A stretch of DNA of 64,000 nt, taken from NCBI GenBank assembly GCA_039111475.1, contig JBCCIP010000010.1, forward strand, positions 62,677 through 126,676, read 5' to 3'. The stretch comes from Pseudomonadota bacterium. Lineage in GTDB: Bacteria > Pseudomonadota > Gammaproteobacteria > Pseudomonadales > JAUIET01. The translations under genes and the position numbers were made by a program. Below, one piece after another: positions 53,355 to 62,884 of this stretch (positions are counted from its first letter, which is position 1; every line of letters begins with the position of its first letter). The notes below the pieces were generated by a model. The model was not told where the DNA came from. It saw only the letters and a program-made list of their open reading frames with translations, and ran no database searches.

Positions 53355-53481
53355 AGTTGTGGGAGCGGTGGCTCAAAGTCAGGCCTGCGGATGCTCAAAA
53401 TTGCAAAAATCATGGTTTTTCTGTCACCACTGGTCTGAATCTGGATGTTAATTGAGGCCATTCATTCAATAAGTTCTTTAA

Positions 53482-53551
53482 TTACAGTAGGTTACAGAAA
53501 TTACAGTTTCAGTTATTGTTACATGTAATAATTTGATATATCACATGTAAG
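53482..53551. promoter_or_regulatory. AT-rich control region. Three TTACAG repeats phased at about 10 bp, then the perfect palindrome TTACATGTAA and a second ACATGTAA copy 23 bp downstream.
   Basis: Read directly. Immediately upstream of the pspA-like operon. Confidence 0.4.
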
Positions 53552-53567
53552 TTGTTAGGATATGTGC

Positions 53568-54188
53568 ATGGAAAAGAAAACATCAGCCCACTATCAGCGC
53601 GAGTTCCGAAGAAGGCTCAGAGAACAAGGACTGATAAAGAAAGAGGTCTGGATTCACCCTGAACGTGCTTCACAGCTTAGGGAGATCGAGAAACGACTGA
53701 GATTTAGTGGCGAAAACGTATTAACGGACGGAGAAAATAGCATGACGAGTAGAACCAACGGCACATGGCATACAACGGATCTTTACACTGAGATTGAGAA
53801 GTCGGAGCTGATCAGTTCTGGCGCCGCGAGCGTCGAACTTATAGAAGGCGTGGATCCCAGTATTCATCTCGAGATGCGCGACTACGGCGACCTGCCTATT
53901 TTTGTCACGGTTGCCGGCGAGCAAATAACGGCCGACGCTGTTTTATGGCCGAAATCAGCCGTTTCAAATGCAGCGGGCTTTAATGACGCAGTACTGCGAA
54001 CACACAAGTACTTCCCGTTATCCACGATCAGTTTGGAAACGGTGAATGGCGAAGATTATTACTACATGTTTGGCGCATTGAGCGCGGCATCGGGTCTGGA
54101 TGACGTGCTGGTAGAAATAGACGCGCTGGCTTCAAACGTAATTAACGCGACTGAAGCTTATGGCGAGTTTCTGAAGTTTGATTCGTAG
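53568..54188 (+). CDS. Hypothetical protein with a basic N-terminal extension and a C-terminal domain resembling YjfI/DUF2170 (assigned by gene-order analogy).
   Basis: It is the first gene of the operon directly preceding a PspA/YjfJ-like gene, as in E. coli yjfI-yjfJ. N-terminus KKTSAHYQREFRRRLREQGL. ATG at 53568 has an AGGA Shine-Dalgarno. Confidence 0.45.
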   Translation: MEKKTSAHYQREFRRRLREQGLIKKEVWIHPERASQLREIEKRLRFSGENVLTDGENSMTSRTNGTWHTTDLYTEIEKSELISSGAASVELIEGVDPSIHLEMRDYGDLPIFVTVAGEQITADAVLWPKSAVSNAAGFNDAVLRTHKYFPLSTISLETVNGEDYYYMFGALSAASGLDDVLVEIDALASNVINATEAYGEFLKFDS

Positions 54189-54223: not shown

Positions 54224-54937
54224 ATGAATATTTGGGCAAAGATGATCACAGCACTTCGCGGAGGTGTTAATGAAGCCGGAGAGGCGATAGTTGACACTCA
54301 AGCACTGCGAATACTTGATCAAGAAGTGCGCGACGCAGCTGAAGAGCTGAAGCAATCGAAAGACGGTTTGGCTAACATTATTGCACAGCAAAAATTGGCG
54401 GAGGAGAAGGTCGCTAAGTTAGAGAGTGAGATAAAAGCTCATGAAGGCTATGCTGTGAAAGCACTTGAGAAGGGCGATGAAGTGCTTGCGTTAGAAGTTG
54501 CCGAAAAAATCGCCAATATGGAAGTTAGTTTGGCGACGGAACGGAATTCTGCCAATGAGTTTGCGGCCAGCGCTGCTAAACTTAAGTCAGCTATCAAGCA
54601 TGCTGAAAGTAATATAAGGCGTTTGAAGCAGCAGGTTGATACAGTTCGTGCCACCGAGAGCGTACAGCGCGCCCAAGCGGCAGTGTCAGAACGGCACAGC
54701 GGTTCAAACTCAAAAATGCGCACTGCCATGGATTCCCTTGAAAGAATCAAGGAAAAACAGGCCCTGAATGAGGCAAAAATGAACGCCGCAGAAGAGCTAA
54801 GCGAAGAGCTTGGGGAAGAATCTTTACAGGCAAAATTGGCGGAAGCGGGAATTACTGGGTCTGAGCGAAGTGCCGAAGACATTTTGGCAAAATTGAAGCC
54901 AAAGGTGAAAAAGGCAACGACTAAGCGTAGCAAATAG
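54224..54937 (+). CDS. PspA/IM30/Vipp1 family protein (YjfJ-like), a member of the ESCRT-III superfamily.
   Basis: All-helical, coiled-coil-rich protein of 237 aa. N-terminus MNIWAKMITALRGGVNEAGEAIVDTQALRILDQEV matches the PspA-family amphipathic helix and core. GGAGAGAG Shine-Dalgarno. Confidence 0.8.
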   Translation: MNIWAKMITALRGGVNEAGEAIVDTQALRILDQEVRDAAEELKQSKDGLANIIAQQKLAEEKVAKLESEIKAHEGYAVKALEKGDEVLALEVAEKIANMEVSLATERNSANEFAASAAKLKSAIKHAESNIRRLKQQVDTVRATESVQRAQAAVSERHSGSNSKMRTAMDSLERIKEKQALNEAKMNAAEELSEELGEESLQAKLAEAGITGSERSAEDILAKLKPKVKKATTKRSK

Positions 54938-54974: not shown

Positions 54975-55679
54975 ATGTTCGCAATTCTGTTAAGTGACAA
55001 GATGAATCCGTTCTACGAGAACATTGCGTCCTTTCCTACCGTTGTATTCACGTTTCTTCTGGTGCTGTGCACGCTCTATTGGCTTACTGCCATATTGGGA
55101 TTAGTCAGCGTCGACATGCTTGATTTTGATCTGCCCGAAATGGCCGGCCTCGAAGATCTAAATGCTGACGTTGATTCTACCAATCCTGATGTGCTTGCGG
55201 GTTTGATGTTGCGATATGGCCTACACGGTGTACCAGTAACCATCATAGTCAGCTTGTTAGCCATGATTGGCTGGATCGTTTGTTATTACCTGGTGCACTT
55301 CGGCTTCAGTTACACTCCCGATTGGATATCAGATAGCTTTGTTCGTTATCTGGTCGGAATACCGATATTCCTCGTTTCGCTCTACCTGGCTGTGCTTGCC
55401 ACCGCTGTGCTTATAAAACCGCTTCGACCGTTCTTTCTTCGGGCAACGCAAGAAACCACAAAATATGTGATAGGTCAGACGGCGGTAGTTCGAACTTCCA
55501 GAGTGGACAACGGATTCGGTGAGGCGCTGTTGGATGACGGTGGTGCCGGGTTGATTCTGAAAGTGCGTTGCACAGATGGGGAAACGTTTGAGAAGGGAGA
55601 TCGTGTAGTGCTGATCGACCAAATTGAAGGTACCGATTTTTATCGAGTGATCTCTGAAGCAGAATTCACTGATTCCTAG
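54975..55679 (+). CDS. YqiJ/DUF1449-like inner membrane protein with a C-terminal NfeD-like OB-fold.
   Basis: N-terminal TM helices, then a soluble C-terminus (GQTAVVRTSRVDNGFGEALLDDGGAGLILKVRCTDGETFEKGDRVVLIDQIEG) typical of short NfeD proteins, which partner with SPFH proteins. Confidence 0.65.
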   Translation: MFAILLSDKMNPFYENIASFPTVVFTFLLVLCTLYWLTAILGLVSVDMLDFDLPEMAGLEDLNADVDSTNPDVLAGLMLRYGLHGVPVTIIVSLLAMIGWIVCYYLVHFGFSYTPDWISDSFVRYLVGIPIFLVSLYLAVLATAVLIKPLRPFFLRATQETTKYVIGQTAVVRTSRVDNGFGEALLDDGGAGLILKVRCTDGETFEKGDRVVLIDQIEGTDFYRVISEAEFTDS

Positions 55680-55732: not shown

Positions 55733-57643
55733 ATGGCTGATTTATCGATTTTGATGCCGATTCTCGTATGGATAGGCGTGGCATTCGTAACATTGCTTGG
55801 TCTGGCGGGTTTGTTCAAAGCGTTTTACTACAAAGTAGAGCAGGGCACCGCGCTTATCGTCAATGACATGAGCTCAACACCCAAGGTCCATTTTACCGGC
55901 GCTCTGGTGTATCCAATCATCTACAAAAAGGAGCTGATGAAAATCTCCTTGATAACCCTGGAGGTTGATCGCAGGGCTAAAGACGGCCTGATTTGTAATG
56001 ACAATATGCGTGCAGACATAACGGTAGCGTTTTATTTGCGGGTTAATGAAACCGCTCAAGACGTGCTAAAGGTTGCAAAGTCGATAGGTGCTGAACGAGC
56101 TTCTGATCGTGAAGCAGTTCATGACTTGTTTGCCGCCAAGTTTTCTGAAGCACTGAAAACCGTGGGCAAGCAGATTGACTTTGTACAGTTGTTTGAGAAT
56201 CGCCAGCAATTTCGTGAAAAAATCATCGAAGTTATTGGCGAAGATTTGAATGGTTATGTACTGGAAGATGTTGCAATCGACTATCTGGAACAAACTCCAA
56301 AAGAACATTTGGACCCAAGTAATATTCTCGACTCAGAAGGCATAAAGAAGATTACGGAGTTAACCGCTGAGCAGAACGTTCGAACCAATATCCTTGAACG
56401 GGACGAAGAACTTGCGATCAAGAAGAAAAATGTAGAAACAGTGGAAGCAATGCTAGAGCTTGAACGCCAGCAAGCAGATGCCGAAGCGCGACAAGAAAGA
56501 GAAGTGCTGACCATACGCGCTCGTGAAGAAGCAGAAACGAAAAAAGTGCAGGAAGAGGAGCGTCAAAAAGCTGAGCAGGCGACGATTACTGTAGATCAGG
56601 AGCTGATGGTACAAACAGAAAACCAGAAGCGCGAAGTAGAGGTAGCGGAGCAAAACCGTCAGCGCGCTGTTGCGGTAGAAGAAGAAAAGGTCACACGTGC
56701 TCGTGACCTGGAGATAGTATCCAGGGAAAGAGAAGTTGACGTAGAGCGCGTGCTTGCAGAGAAAGCCGTGGAAGTTGAGAAGAAAGAAATCGCCAACGTA
56801 ATTCGTGAGCGAGTCGCCGTCGATAAAACAGTGGCCATTGAGGAAGAGCGAATTAAGGAAGTGAGAGAAGTATCAGATGCTGACCGTAAGAAGCAAGTGC
56901 AGGTACTCGCTGCTGAGGCAAATGCTCAGGAAGGCAAGGTGAAAGAGGTCACAGCTGCGGCCGCTGAAGAAGAAGCTGCGAAACACAAAGCAGCTGAAAT
57001 CACTACAATTGCGGCGGCAAACCTTGATGCTGCTGATATGGAAGCCAAAGCACAAATCCGCTTGGCCGAAGCCATTCAGGCTGACCAAGCGGCACCGGGT
57101 CTTGCGGAAGCTCAGGTACAAGATGCGAAAGCAGACTCTTTGCAGAAAGAAGGTCTTGCTGAAGCTGCTGTGATCAATGCCAAAGGCGACGCCGAAGCCA
57201 GTGCCTCGAAAGAAATTGGAATGGCCGGAGCGGAAGTCACTCGCCAGCAATTCAAGGCTGAGGCCGATGGCTTGGTGGATAAGTTCGATGCTATGAATTC
57301 AATGAGTGATAATGCCCGCGAGCATGAGGAATTCCGCATGGCGCTTGAAACAGCCTTTAAGGAAGCCATTGCCGCGATTGAAGCAGGTAAGGAAATCGCC
57401 AAAGAAAACGCTGAAGTGTTGGGTACAGCGCTGGAACGAGCGAAGATCGATATTGTGGGTGGAGAAGATCACTTCTTCGACAACTTCGCCAAGTCTTTGT
57501 CCATTGGCAAAGCCGTGGATGGACTGGCCAACAAGAGCGACACACTTGGCTTGATCCTCGACTCTGTGCTCAAGCGTGCAAGCGGTGACGTGGTTGCTGT
57601 AGACCCGGAGCAAGAAGCGCCCGCCTCCGAGCCGGCCGCCTAA
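55733..57643 (+). CDS. Flotillin / SPFH (band-7) domain protein, YqiK-like.
   Basis: N-terminal TM helix, an SPFH domain (VEQGTALIVNDMSSTPKVHFTGALVYPIIYKKELMKISLITLEV), then a long EA-rich coiled-coil flotillin tail. Confidence 0.85.
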   Translation: MADLSILMPILVWIGVAFVTLLGLAGLFKAFYYKVEQGTALIVNDMSSTPKVHFTGALVYPIIYKKELMKISLITLEVDRRAKDGLICNDNMRADITVAFYLRVNETAQDVLKVAKSIGAERASDREAVHDLFAAKFSEALKTVGKQIDFVQLFENRQQFREKIIEVIGEDLNGYVLEDVAIDYLEQTPKEHLDPSNILDSEGIKKITELTAEQNVRTNILERDEELAIKKKNVETVEAMLELERQQADAEARQEREVLTIRAREEAETKKVQEEERQKAEQATITVDQELMVQTENQKREVEVAEQNRQRAVAVEEEKVTRARDLEIVSREREVDVERVLAEKAVEVEKKEIANVIRERVAVDKTVAIEEERIKEVREVSDADRKKQVQVLAAEANAQEGKVKEVTAAAAEEEAAKHKAAEITTIAAANLDAADMEAKAQIRLAEAIQADQAAPGLAEAQVQDAKADSLQKEGLAEAAVINAKGDAEASASKEIGMAGAEVTRQQFKAEADGLVDKFDAMNSMSDNAREHEEFRMALETAFKEAIAAIEAGKEIAKENAEVLGTALERAKIDIVGGEDHFFDNFAKSLSIGKAVDGLANKSDTLGLILDSVLKRASGDVVAVDPEQEAPASEPAA

Positions 57644-57664: not shown

Positions 57665-60600
57665 ATGGCTGAAGAACACGAAGAACACGCATCGCTAGTT
57701 GAGGCTGCTGTAGCCGAAGGAGGCGCTTATGAAATTATTCGCAAGCGCTTGGAGGCACAAGGTCTTACGCTGGAAGAGAAGACGCTCGCCCTGAATGCTG
57801 CGCGTACAGAGGAGATTGGCAGTACCGATCTCGAAACTATTGCGCGAGTGCGGGTGAGAACGGAAAACAATTGCATTGCCAGAGACCTGGTTCAGGTTGG
57901 CGACTGTTTGCTGTTTGGCTACAACGTCTTCATTGGCCTTAAAAAACAGACAAAGGTTGAAGACGTATTTGCGTTATTCAGGCTGTCTGACAAAGAAGAC
58001 GGCCATGGCATAGAACCGGCAGAGCATCAATCAAACTTCCTGACACAGCCGCGTTTTCTCAATGATTTTCGCGAGCTGTATGAATACTACAAAAATGCCC
58101 GCCTGATTCAGCTGACTGTTAACAATGGTAAGTTGCTGGCCGGGTTTCAGATAGGGGAAAAGCACACTGATATTCGTGTATTCCGATGGAGTGTTGGCGC
58201 TGATGGAAGCCGTGTGGAATACATTGATAATCGTGGGGAGCGCGATATTCAATTGCCACCAGCCTTTGATTTTGAATGGCAGGCCAGCAGCAGAGAAGAT
58301 TTTGTGAATGGCCGCCATCCGCACATCAATATTCTGGATACCTTGTTTGTAGACAACCTTGATGGTTCAATCGGCTTTAAAGTAGAAAACAACACAGAAT
58401 CAGGTCTGGGTGTTTTCAGCGAGCCATTGGCAGAAAGCAATCAATCACTCGATGATCTTGACGTATTTTTCGCGAAACTGGGCGATTTGCTGTTACTTCG
58501 CGTGCTTCCGTACCGCGAGGAAGACTGGCGCCATTATGTGTTCAATAGTAATACGCAACTTATTGAGCGAATAGATTCGATTGGCGAGTCTTGCGTTCAA
58601 TTGCCGGAGGATCACGGTTTAATCTACCCCGACGGTTACTATCTGCAAAGCGGTGAGTCAAAGAACTTTGGTGAAATGACCAAAGGCTTTAAGTTCAAGC
58701 GCAGTGTGCGCTCACCCAATGGCGAAGACTACCTGTTTGTGTTCTATGAACCGGCTGCCGGCCGCGTAGCCTTGTTTTCTTACAATCTGATCGAACGGAG
58801 TTTGCAAAACCCTATTTTTGGAAACGGTTATGCAAGAGCTGAAAATGGCAAACTGGTGATTTTTACCTCCGAGGATGAGCCTACCCGTGTTCACCCCATG
58901 CAAGTCTGGCAAACGCCATTCACATCACAGGAATTTGCAGACCAGGAACCAGCGGCACAGACCTTCTTCGGTAAGATAGGCAACTCCGCGCTGGTTCGTG
59001 GGGTATCAGATTTGTATCGAGTGTGTAAGCAAATCCGCCAGCAGCAAGTAACAGCTGTGCATTACGAACGCCTTCAAAAAGACATTGCCAAGGTCTTTGA
59101 TGCTCATTACTGGTTGACCAGCGACGAGCTGGATGGCTTGGACACGGTACTTAAAAGTATCGCTGATACCTCCGAACTTATTATCGATGAATTCGAGAAA
59201 GTGACAGCGATACGGGAACAATCAAGCCTGGCTATTGAGGATGCTGTGCGTAGCCAGGGCAACTTGATTGGCGAGATAGACAACGCCAGTCTGGAGCAAG
59301 TCGCTGACTTTGTGAGTTTTCTCGATCAAATTCGCCACCAGCGTGGACATCTAGCCACAATTGCTGAATATCGATACATTGATGCTGAGCGAATTGCCAC
59401 TCTGGATCAAGCGCTTAAACAGAGAGCGGACGAATTAGGTAAGAAGACTATTGAGTTCCTCGCTGAAGAGCAAGCACTAGTACCTTACACCGAGAAAATA
59501 AAGGCGTTGGAACAGCAGCTGGATGGCGCCAAAACAGCAACTCAATTTGAGCCCTTTATTAATGAAATAGAATCAATAGCGGGCAGTCTTGATCTACTGT
59601 CCGAATTGGTTACCACGCTTAAAGTTGACGATGCAACGGTTCGAACGAAAATCATTGATGGAATATCAGCCGTTTATGCGCAGCTTAACCAAACGAAGGC
59701 AAGCGCCGAGATTAAAAAATCTGACCTAACGTCAGAAGAGGCTGTTGCCCAGTTTGCGGCGCAATTCAAATTACTTTCCCAGAGTGTTAATAATGCGCTC
59801 AGTCTTGCGACTGACCCGGAAAAGTGCGACGAACAGCTGTCGCGGCTGCTGGTTCAGCTTGAAGAACTGGAAAGTCAGTTTGGCGAGCACGACCGCTTCC
59901 TTGGTGACATTGTAGACAAGCGGGAAGAAATCTATGACAGCTTTGAATCGCATAAGCAACAACTGGTAGAAGGCCAGCAAAGGCGCATTGCTGCCTTACA
60001 AAGCGCTGCCGAGCGCATGCTAAACAGCATTGATAAGCGAAGTATCAAGTTCAATGACGCAGATGAACTTAATACCTACCTGGTGTCAGATGCACTGGTG
60101 CTAAAGATCAGCGACCTCACCGATCAACTCAGTGCAATTGGTGGGGATTTGCAAGCAGATGATATTGGCGCACGCCTGAAACTCATCAAAGATCAGGCCT
60201 TGCGTTCTCTGCGAGATAAGTCTGATATTTTTGAATCTGGCGGCAAGGTTATCAAGCTGGGTGACAAGCACAGGTTTACTGTGAATACGGAAGAGCTTGA
60301 CCTAAGCATTATTCCGATTGATGAGCATTTGTCTGTGCATCTAAGTGGTACACAGTATTTTGACAAAATTGAAAACGATGATCTTGAAATACGACGACCC
60401 TATTGGGATGTTGTTCTTGAGTCTGAAAGCAACACCGTTTCCCGGGCAGAGTATCTCGCGTACCAGTTTGCGCTCGCGCTGAGAGCGGGCGATATAGCAA
60501 CTGATGAGCTAGGCAAAGAGCCGTACAGTCATGAGCAGCTGTATCCACTAATTCAAAAGTTTGCGGCACCACTCTATAAGCACGCTTACGAGAAAGGCAT

Positions 60601-62884
60601 ACACGACCATGATGCAGCTCGAATTACCGAGAACTTGCTGCCGATTCTAAAGACGGCTGGCCCGCTGGTGTACTCACCTGAGAGCCGCGCGCTCGCGATG
60701 TCGTTCTGGTACCAGCAAGCGCAGGTTGATACCGATGGGAAGCTCATCGACGTAATCACTCAGAGAGCAAAGTCAGCGTTCGCGCTGAAGAAAGCGCTTA
60801 ACAGCAATAATAGTCTGGACATTTTAATCGCTGATGTCTTGGAACTGATTTCGGAGTATCAACAAGATAAAGGCATAGATGTATCCAGCCAGACGATGAG
60901 TCAAGCTGCCAGCTACCTACTGGCGGAGTTGGAAGAAGGCAAGCCGGAATTCTCAGTGAGCCCCGCAGGGCAAGAGTTGCTGGATCTGTACCATCGCAAG
61001 CTTGGCAAGCGAGCGGTTCAGGGTCATACGAAGTCTATTGCCGGCATGCGGGGCGATCCAATGAGGCAATGGTCACTGAGCCGCGCCTGGTTGCTGGCCC
61101 TTCTGGATGAAATTAAAGACGAGAGCAAGCGAGCGGTGCTAAACGTGTTCGTTGACGAAGCTGTTGCAGTGTTGAATTGGGGCGAAGGTATCGATACTCG
61201 TTGCAGCAACGCGGAGCTGCGCATGTCTGTGGATGGCTTGCTGAGTTCGCATGAGAGAATCTCAGATCAGCGACTGAATTTTACGCTGGATGATTTCATG
61301 CATCGAATGCTACACCATCAGGAAATCTTTATTCCAGAGTACAAACATTTCATTGAACTCAAGCAGCAGATCGCGGCCCAGCAGCGTTCGGATCTTCGCC
61401 TGGAATCCTTCAAGCCAAGACCGCTTAGCTCATTCGTTCGAAACAAACTAATAGATCAGGCCTATCTTCCTATTATCGGCGACAATCTTGCCAAGCAAAT
61501 GGGGACTGTGGGTGACAGCAAGCGTACCGACTTGATGGGTTTACTGATGATGATTTCCCCACCGGGTTATGGCAAAACCACTTTGATGGAGTATGTTGCC
61601 AGTCGACTAGGCTTAATCTTCATGAAAATTAACTGCCCGGCATTGGGGCACGATGTGGTTTCAGTTGATCCGCAACAGGCAAGTAATGCCACTGCACGAC
61701 AGGAACTCGAGAAGCTCAATTTGGCATTTGAGATGGGCAACAACGTGATGCTATATCTGGACGATATCCAGCACACGAATTCCGAGTTTCTGCAAAAATT
61801 TATTTCACTGTGTGATGCGACGCGCCGGATAGAGGGTGTGTGGCGGGGTGATGTAAAGACCTATGACTTACGCGGCAGGCGATTCTGCGTAGTGATGGCT
61901 GGTAACCCGTATACGGAATCTGGTGAGAGCTTCAAAGTGCCAGACATGCTGGCCAATCGTGCCGATATTTACAATTTGGGTGACATACTCAGTGGCATGG
62001 ATGAGGTATTTGCGCTCAGCTACATAGAGAATTGCCTGACGTCCAATTCAACGCTCGCACCGTTAGCGGCCAGAGATATGCAAGATGTATATCGCTTTAT
62101 TGATATGGCCAAAGGGCGTGAAGTGCCGACTACTGACTTGAGTCATAGCTACAGTGGCGCTGAAGTTTCCGAGATTGTGGGTGTTTTGAAAAAGCTGTTT
62201 GTCGTGCAGAACGTTATTCTGCGAATCAATCAGCAATACATTGCATCCGCAGCACAGGAAGATAAGTACAGAGTTGAGCCGCCTTTTTTACTGCAAGGCA
62301 GTTATCGAAACATGAATAAAATGGCTGAAAAAATCTCGGCTGTTATGAATAGCGAAGAACTTGAGCGGCTCATCGATGATCACTATCTAGGCGAAGCTCA
62401 GTTGCTCACAACGGGTACAGAAGCTAATCTGCTCAAACTCGCTGAATTGAGAGGCGGTCTGGATGACGAGCAGGAACAGCGTTGGCAGCAGATAAAAGAC
62501 GATTTCTTGCGCAATAAATCGCTGGGTGGTGATGCAGATGACGTAGGTAATCGAATAGCGACACAACTGGCAGACCTGGTCAACAGCGTCAGTGATCTTG
62601 ATCGGGGACAAGCTGAGCATGATTCAAACTATCTTGCGAAGCTTGCGGCCAGTGCTGAAAAAATTGCTGAAGGACACCCCAGACAGGAACCAAATATAGA
62701 AGTGGTAAACCAGGCCAACCCGGAATTGGCTAATGCAGTGGGTGTACTGACCAACACGATTGAGAGCACTTTGTTCCCAATTCTTCGATCAATGGACAAG
62801 AAATTGGATATTGATTTAAGAACGCAGGAAAAGATGCACGCTATCTCAGAGCAATTGCGCGCGCTTCAAAAAAGCGTCGAGTAA
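57665..62884 (+). CDS. Giant (1739 aa) cytoplasmic protein with a C-terminal MoxR/AAA_5-type AAA+ ATPase module. The N-terminal 1300 aa or so are unassigned.
   Basis: Walker A PPGYGKTT (around 61559-61582), Walker B MLYLDDIQH (around 61748-61771), and a sensor/Arg region VVMAGNPYTESGESFKVPDMLANRADIY that matches the MoxR pattern NPxExxG...DRF. Long helical or coiled-coil segments upstream. No signal peptide or TM segment. Starts 21 nt after the flotillin gene. Confidence 0.8.
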   Translation: MAEEHEEHASLVEAAVAEGGAYEIIRKRLEAQGLTLEEKTLALNAARTEEIGSTDLETIARVRVRTENNCIARDLVQVGDCLLFGYNVFIGLKKQTKVEDVFALFRLSDKEDGHGIEPAEHQSNFLTQPRFLNDFRELYEYYKNARLIQLTVNNGKLLAGFQIGEKHTDIRVFRWSVGADGSRVEYIDNRGERDIQLPPAFDFEWQASSREDFVNGRHPHINILDTLFVDNLDGSIGFKVENNTESGLGVFSEPLAESNQSLDDLDVFFAKLGDLLLLRVLPYREEDWRHYVFNSNTQLIERIDSIGESCVQLPEDHGLIYPDGYYLQSGESKNFGEMTKGFKFKRSVRSPNGEDYLFVFYEPAAGRVALFSYNLIERSLQNPIFGNGYARAENGKLVIFTSEDEPTRVHPMQVWQTPFTSQEFADQEPAAQTFFGKIGNSALVRGVSDLYRVCKQIRQQQVTAVHYERLQKDIAKVFDAHYWLTSDELDGLDTVLKSIADTSELIIDEFEKVTAIREQSSLAIEDAVRSQGNLIGEIDNASLEQVADFVSFLDQIRHQRGHLATIAEYRYIDAERIATLDQALKQRADELGKKTIEFLAEEQALVPYTEKIKALEQQLDGAKTATQFEPFINEIESIAGSLDLLSELVTTLKVDDATVRTKIIDGISAVYAQLNQTKASAEIKKSDLTSEEAVAQFAAQFKLLSQSVNNALSLATDPEKCDEQLSRLLVQLEELESQFGEHDRFLGDIVDKREEIYDSFESHKQQLVEGQQRRIAALQSAAERMLNSIDKRSIKFNDADELNTYLVSDALVLKISDLTDQLSAIGGDLQADDIGARLKLIKDQALRSLRDKSDIFESGGKVIKLGDKHRFTVNTEELDLSIIPIDEHLSVHLSGTQYFDKIENDDLEIRRPYWDVVLESESNTVSRAEYLAYQFALALRAGDIATDELGKEPYSHEQLYPLIQKFAAPLYKHAYEKGIHDHDAARITENLLPILKTAGPLVYSPESRALAMSFWYQQAQVDTDGKLIDVITQRAKSAFALKKALNSNNSLDILIADVLELISEYQQDKGIDVSSQTMSQAASYLLAELEEGKPEFSVSPAGQELLDLYHRKLGKRAVQGHTKSIAGMRGDPMRQWSLSRAWLLALLDEIKDESKRAVLNVFVDEAVAVLNWGEGIDTRCSNAELRMSVDGLLSSHERISDQRLNFTLDDFMHRMLHHQEIFIPEYKHFIELKQQIAAQQRSDLRLESFKPRPLSSFVRNKLIDQAYLPIIGDNLAKQMGTVGDSKRTDLMGLLMMISPPGYGKTTLMEYVASRLGLIFMKINCPALGHDVVSVDPQQASNATARQELEKLNLAFEMGNNVMLYLDDIQHTNSEFLQKFISLCDATRRIEGVWRGDVKTYDLRGRRFCVVMAGNPYTESGESFKVPDMLANRADIYNLGDILSGMDEVFALSYIENCLTSNSTLAPLAARDMQDVYRFIDMAKGREVPTTDLSHSYSGAEVSEIVGVLKKLFVVQNVILRINQQYIASAAQEDKYRVEPPFLLQGSYRNMNKMAEKISAVMNSEELERLIDDHYLGEAQLLTTGTEANLLKLAELRGGLDDEQEQRWQQIKDDFLRNKSLGGDADDVGNRIATQLADLVNSVSDLDRGQAEHDSNYLAKLAASAEKIAEGHPRQEPNIEVVNQANPELANAVGVLTNTIESTLFPILRSMDKKLDIDLRTQEKMHAISEQLRALQKSVE

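Follow-up and report, generated by a model that had tools for sequence, protein, structure and literature searches.

A giant BacE-type AAA+ ATPase encoded beside a flotillin gene and its possible role in membrane-scaffold remodelling

What does a very large soluble ATPase do beside a flotillin gene? We know of no dedicated ATPase for the YqiK-type flotillins, and the question is raised by a gene in a 64,000-nucleotide stretch of a Pseudomonadota contig (JBCCIP010000010.1; hereafter the window), whose product had been described from the letters of the DNA as an orphan architecture made of a long helical N-terminal region and a single MoxR-like AAA+ module. The gene starts with ATG and runs as an unbroken reading frame from 57665 to 62884 on the forward strand, encoding 1739 amino acids and a stop codon, as the original prediction had it. 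The protein has no transmembrane-grade hydrophobic segment (top 19-residue Kyte-Doolittle mean 1.52), and one Walker A and one strict Walker B motif were found in its entire length, which confirms a single AAA+ module near the C terminus of a very large soluble protein. These single motifs rule out cryptic AAA modules of the dynein or midasin kind; residues 1-1250 also have no repeated beta-alpha-beta core in the AF2 secondary structure. A frameshift or fusion artefact is ruled out by the best 120 homologues, which are 1739-1882 amino acids long and colinear with 96-100% query coverage, and the ATPases of Deinococcus, Hymenobacter and Streptomyces are likewise full-length and colinear.

Domain architecture and family of the ATPase

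The N-terminal region, in which no motif had been recognized, is matched by two Pfam families: DUF3686 (PF12458) at residues 36-482 (E 7.5e-188; 625 bits against a cut-off of 25; profile positions 2-448 of 448) and DUF7902 (PF25472) at residues 603-685 (E 1.8e-25; 89.4 bits against a cut-off of 26). Nor is this region helical throughout. In AF2 models of the protein (pLDDT 84 and 75), residues ~57-416 are all beta (pLDDT ~85-90) and long helices are found only at ~420-855. The models predict, in order, an N-terminal helix (residues 3-51), an all-beta, propeller-like domain with the DUF3686 core (residues 56-420; 57830-58924), a spectrin-like region of long helices, 49-58 residues each, that includes DUF7902 (residues 421-855; 58925-60229), a small beta unit with a large, poorly conserved and mostly helical globular domain (residues 856-1250; 60230-61414), the AAA+ module and a variable tail, all on the forward strand. 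The beta domain superposed poorly on true propellers in fold searches, and the models suggest that it is not a canonical closed propeller. Residues 856-1250, part of the N-terminal region previously described as rich in coiled coil, were modelled instead as a separate and confident globular domain (pLDDT >90 at residues 879-1249). No other part of the protein is less conserved (mean identity 39% versus 84% for the AAA+ core in alignment A1); apart from AAA+ proteins Foldseek gave no PDB match, and the fold of this domain stayed unmatched. Approximately 1,250 of the 1,739 residues lie in interaction-type domains (propeller-like, spectrin-like and helical). No NCBIfam model matched the ATPase, and sequence searches found no relatives of solved structure.

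The architecture turned out to be anything but an orphan. It recurs in more than 4,400 protein clusters at 90% identity and in at least 589 species genomes, and the best 120 homologues carry the same Pfam set as the window protein. When the AAA+ module was searched with phmmer against 1.84 billion representatives, 850 proteins matched at E ≤ 1e-3, a number much too small to cover the large known AAA+ families, and 347 clusters at 50% identity matched at E ≤ 1e-30. Among the top 150 matches, the module always lies at ~1,140-1,450 in long proteins (1,500-2,036 amino acids). No clearly intact stand-alone form was found among the best 150 of the 850; short matches mostly begin or end inside the module.

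Most of these clusters are named ‘DNA repair ATPase’, and Pfam describes DUF3686 as ‘ATPase involved in DNA repair’. A function in DNA repair would agree with these names in NCBI, UniRef and Pfam, with weak coiled-coil-type matches to SMC/LmuB profiles and with RuvB as the top, weak fold match of the module, but we consider it extremely improbable. The SMC-type matches (LmuB, E 1e-3) sit in low-complexity helical regions, Pfam detected no nuclease, helicase or DNA-binding domain, and the protein lacks the split ABC-type head of SMC, Rad50 and RecN, in which an N-terminal Walker A and a C-terminal signature and Walker B flank the coiled coil. The neighbours are always membrane-protein genes and never repair genes. 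We found no support for the name in the literature, where a search on ‘DUF3686’ gave no match. The annotation, which is spreading through databases, is unsupported by our analysis.

The family has been catalogued before. In a purely computational study that gave neither domain boundaries nor motifs, Ravi, Anantharaman, Aravind and Gennaro described a ‘Betapropeller+Coiled-coil+AAA-ATPase’ protein encoded after YqiJ/YuaF and band-7/flotillin genes in PspA operons (Ravi et al. 2024, PMC11237479). The window locus is an instance of this class, with identical operon composition and domain order, to which the AF2 models add the helical domain of ~400 residues that separates the helical repeats from the AAA+ module. 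A well-known architecture covering the N-terminal region, which would count against the original prediction, does exist in the sense that the architecture is known (Pfam; Ravi et al.), but not in the sense that it is characterised. No biochemical or genetic data on a BacE-type ATPase itself, from any organism, were found in the literature. By Pfam content, motifs and gene order, the window protein is a DUF3686-DUF7902-AAA+ giant ATPase of the BacE type, a further member of an already catalogued, computationally described family and nothing new in kind.

The operon and its conserved neighbourhood

The ATPase gene is the last in a tightly spaced cluster of five genes on the forward strand, separated by 35, 37, 53 and 21 nucleotides; co-transcription in the window is predicted from this spacing. 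The first gene (53562-54188) encodes a BacA/YjfI-like DUF2170 protein of 208 amino acids (Pfam DUF2170 E 9e-48), which scores 286 bits, slightly below the 300-bit cut-off, against the NCBIfam model ‘biofilm formation regulator BacA’; DUF2170 proteins have a CesT/Tir-type chaperone fold according to the literature. It is followed by a BacB-like PspA/IM30 protein of 237 amino acids (54224-54937; Pfam PspA_IM30 E 2.1e-46) and by a BacC-like, short NfeD-like protein of the YqiJ/YuaF type (54975-55679; 234 amino acids), which has three hydrophobic segments as expected for three transmembrane helices and matches E. coli YqiJ (BLASTP E 1e-4), with Pfam NfeD and YqiJ_N below threshold. The fourth gene (55733-57643), 21 nucleotides before that of the ATPase, encodes a YqiK-type, BacD/PaFlo3-like flotillin of 636 amino acids, with an N-terminal transmembrane anchor (one hydrophobic segment), an SPFH-like region and a long Glu/Ala-rich helix. 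Because Pfam Band_7 and Flot did not match this protein even at E 10, its homology was taken from BLASTP against E. coli K-12 YqiK (30% identity over 463 amino acids, E 2e-47), which bears out the flotillin neighbour claimed for the ATPase; the protein matched no PDB sequence, whether searched as a single sequence or as a profile.

In P. aeruginosa PA14, the gene in the equivalent operon position is named bacE and belongs to the bacABCDEF ‘biofilm-associated cluster’; bacA to bacF are co-transcribed by RT-PCR, and BacE (PA14_16190) increases 8.9-fold in a bacA mutant along with BacB, BacC and BacD (PMC10948618). On the basis of gene numbering and operon position, and not of a sequence alignment, we take PA14_16190 to be PA3728 of PAO1. 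A P. paraeruginosa locus has the same order as the window (DUF2170 BacA, PspA BacB, short NfeD BacC, flotillin BacD/PaFlo3 and giant ATPase), and its ATPase reading frame of 1746 amino acids shares 53% identity with the window protein over residues 11-1736. Unlike the P. aeruginosa cluster, the window contains no bacF gene (HKD phospholipase-D-like), and no match with up to two mismatches to a sigma-54 -24/-12 site, as proposed in P. aeruginosa, was found before the first gene (53355-53561). An Rfam search of the whole window returned nothing, and sigma-70 and terminator scans were uninformative, with counts at or below shuffle expectation. Deletion of the PaFlo3 flotillin in P. aeruginosa changes biofilm by only ~20% (PMC13086221), which suggests that the phenotype of the module is subtle.

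We surveyed the neighbourhood in 80 related species loci by tblastn; four end at a contig edge, leaving 76 informative. In all 76, the ATPase gene has a flotillin gene upstream on its own strand, directly adjoining it in nearly all. An NfeD-like gene is present in 71 of the 80 loci, PspA in 49 and DUF2170 in 48 (on the strand of the ATPase in 46). The NfeD-flotillin-ATPase triad also occurs in Deinococcus, Hymenobacter and Streptomyces, where the flotillins are 43-56% and the ATPases 40-46% identical and colinear over ~1,630 amino acids. The invariant core, shared by at least five phyla, is this triad rather than PspA, which like its chaperone is frequent but optional.

The PA3728-PA3732 genes of P. 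aeruginosa are up-regulated on phage infection (PMC12041424), and in 19 of the 80 loci the ATPase gene is followed by one for an HKD-motif protein. These observations would fit an anti-phage defence system, in which the ATPase acts as a phage-induced AAA+ sensor for a membrane effector, in some genomes the HKD phospholipase-D-type BacF. We regard this as very unlikely: BacF is absent from the window, PADLOC models gave coiled-coil-type noise only (E ≥ 3.7e-4), and phage induces Psp-type genes as part of a general response to envelope stress. Homologues were found in none of 50,697 phage records and in 13 of 72,556 plasmid records, most of the 13 being megaplasmids or chromids, and the family forms a stable core-genome operon with its order kept across phyla, not a patchy defence island.

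The AAA+ module and C-terminal tail

The AAA+ module, an alpha/beta core with a lid, spans residues 1251-1600 (61415-62464, forward strand). The motifs quoted in the original prediction were placed correctly, with PPGYGKTT at 1299-1306, LYLDDIQH at 1363-1370 and MAGNPYTESGESFKVPDMLANRADIY at 1411-1436. The full Walker A (ISPPGYGKTT, 1297-1306) and Walker B (MLYLDDIQHT, 1362-1371) lie 60 residues apart near the C terminus, and they are accompanied by sensor 1 (N1414), an Arg-finger candidate (R1432) and a sensor-2 candidate (R1548), all invariant in 23 sequences from divergent loci. Within these sequences, Walker B is an invariant LDD (D1366, D1367) and not DE, a replacement that may make for poor hydrolysis. 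A conserved RRxEGxW hairpin precedes sensor 1, and AF2 places it at residues 1389-1400 before strand 4, with none in the 1324-1341 loop, in a model whose P-loop region is poor. In the loop that joins strand 2 to helix 2, CPALGHDVVSVDP, the 23 members have no conserved aromatic residue, and the module lacks an aromatic pore loop. Conservation within the protein is highest in the AAA+ core (84% versus 39-65% elsewhere in alignment A1). Across phyla the module keeps 57-87% identity; the figure is 69% or more in each of the 79 loci that cover the AAA+ region, and 57-67% in Deinococcus, Hymenobacter and Streptomyces.

MoxR/AAA_5 ATPases, among them RavA, CbbQ and NorQ, are normally stand-alone proteins of ~300-350 amino acids that have a VWA-domain partner gene, an hhhhDE Walker B and a module with a helix-2 insert, a pre-sensor-1 hairpin and a pre-sensor-2 insert. 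The likeness to MoxR holds in part. Pfam AAA_5 matches 23 of 23 members tested (29-32 bits against a cut-off of 22) and has the widest coverage on the module (profile positions 2-127 of 139), with a match that runs from Walker A to sensor 1. In addition, a GNPxxExG...PxxLxxR string resembles what we take to be the consensus of the MoxR sensor-1/Arg-finger region. However, Pfam AAA also matches 23 of 23 members with about equal scores, the ATPase, at 1739 amino acids, is about five times larger than MoxR proteins, none of the operon proteins scanned with Pfam has a VWA domain, Walker B reads DD, and no helix-2 insert is seen in the AF2 model, which is poor around the P-loop. The best Foldseek matches of the module in the PDB were RuvB and then NorQ, both weak (E ≥ 1.4e-3), with NorQ and CbbQ at only E 6e-3 to 3e-2, and a profile of the AAA+ region matched solved structures only in the Walker A region. 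Since these fold matches are weak and the first strand and P-loop are poorly modelled (pLDDT <50), the clade assignment and the formation of a ring are tentative.

The module is followed by a variable helical tail (residues 1601-1739; 62465-62881, forward strand), which has low AF2 confidence, is the site of large insertions in homologues and ends in a conserved motif (FPILRSMDKKLDIDLR...). An association was found between this motif and the presence of PspA in the operon (29/32 versus 20/36, Fisher p 0.002, uncorrected for phylogeny).

A putative remodeller of flotillin and NfeD scaffolds

AAA+ proteins generally assemble into rings. We propose, with a probability of about one half, that the window ATPase corresponds to bacE and is an ATP-driven remodeller of a flotillin/NfeD (and PspA) scaffold in an inner-membrane stress module. 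The AAA+ modules would form a ring, which the propeller and helical arms would dock onto the flotillin/NfeD cage from the cytoplasmic side and, in loci with PspA, also onto PspA polymers; ATP binding and hydrolysis would then drive assembly, remodelling or disassembly of the scaffold during envelope stress. From gene order we infer that the ATPase may contact flotillin, NfeD or PspA physically. The nearest functional analogies may be FtsH with its HflK/C cage and Vps4 on ESCRT-III. Like FtsH-HflK/C, the locus pairs an AAA+ ATPase with a scaffold of the SPFH/flotillin family, an analogy of function only that is drawn here from gene order; FtsH, a member of the classical AAA clade, is anchored in the membrane and has a protease domain, whereas the window ATPase is soluble and lacks one.

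The likeness to Vps4 lies in the genetic link between an AAA+ ATPase and PspA, a polymer of the ESCRT-III superfamily. Taken further, it would make the protein a threading unfoldase with PspA as its main substrate, one that depolymerises PspA rods or carpets after membrane repair. PspA is indeed in the operon in the window and in the 49 loci mentioned above, the conserved motif of the C-terminal tail tracks it, and for pairs of PspA with an AAA+ protein Ravi et al. suggest an analogy to ESCRT systems (PMC11237479). Nevertheless, PspA is missing from approximately 30% of informative loci and flotillin from none, so that PspA, unlike flotillin, is dispensable for the gene association. Pfam found no MIT domain, the aromatic pore-loop-1 of Vps4 is absent, and the pre-sensor-1 hairpin together with the AAA_5/RuvB affinities puts the module outside the classical Vps4 clade, in a different AAA+ lineage. 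Such a Vps4-like role is therefore unlikely. Given the lack of an aromatic pore-loop-1, the invariant DD and the RRxEGxW hairpin, either a surface or hairpin remodeller in the style of MoxR/RuvB or a slowly hydrolysing switch would be expected of a BacE-type ATPase, and a processive threading unfoldase would not.

A nucleotide-dependent switch or scaffold that does little mechanical work, in which ATP binding controls the oligomerisation of a large propeller and helical-repeat platform for recruiting or organising the flotillin/PspA machinery, seems unlikely. The replacement of the catalytic DE, the missing pore-loop aromatic and the large share of interaction-type domains speak for it. Against it, no other part of the protein is conserved as strongly as the AAA+ core, and sensor 1 and the Arg-finger and sensor-2 candidates are all invariant, as would be expected if hydrolysis, and not binding alone, were under selection.

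These data make the BacE-type family the obvious candidate ATPase for the assembly, remodelling and recycling of flotillin/SPFH cages and PspA polymers, since it is always encoded with a flotillin, is present in at least five phyla, has an unusually strongly constrained AAA+ core and belongs to an operon that in P. aeruginosa is linked to biofilm formation, virulence and the phage response. The analysis also supplies domain boundaries and predicted catalytic residues for this ATPase. More tentatively, it is possible that a BacE-type ring, docked by its propeller and spectrin-like arms on the cytoplasmic side of the YqiK/NfeD cage and of PspA where that is encoded, opens, closes or recycles the cage with ATP and is the missing energy source of flotillin microdomains. 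If so, bacteria would have in it an equivalent of Vps4/ESCRT-III or FtsH/HflKC built from an AAA+ lineage otherwise unknown, one that has kept 57-67% identity from Actinomycetota to Pseudomonadota.

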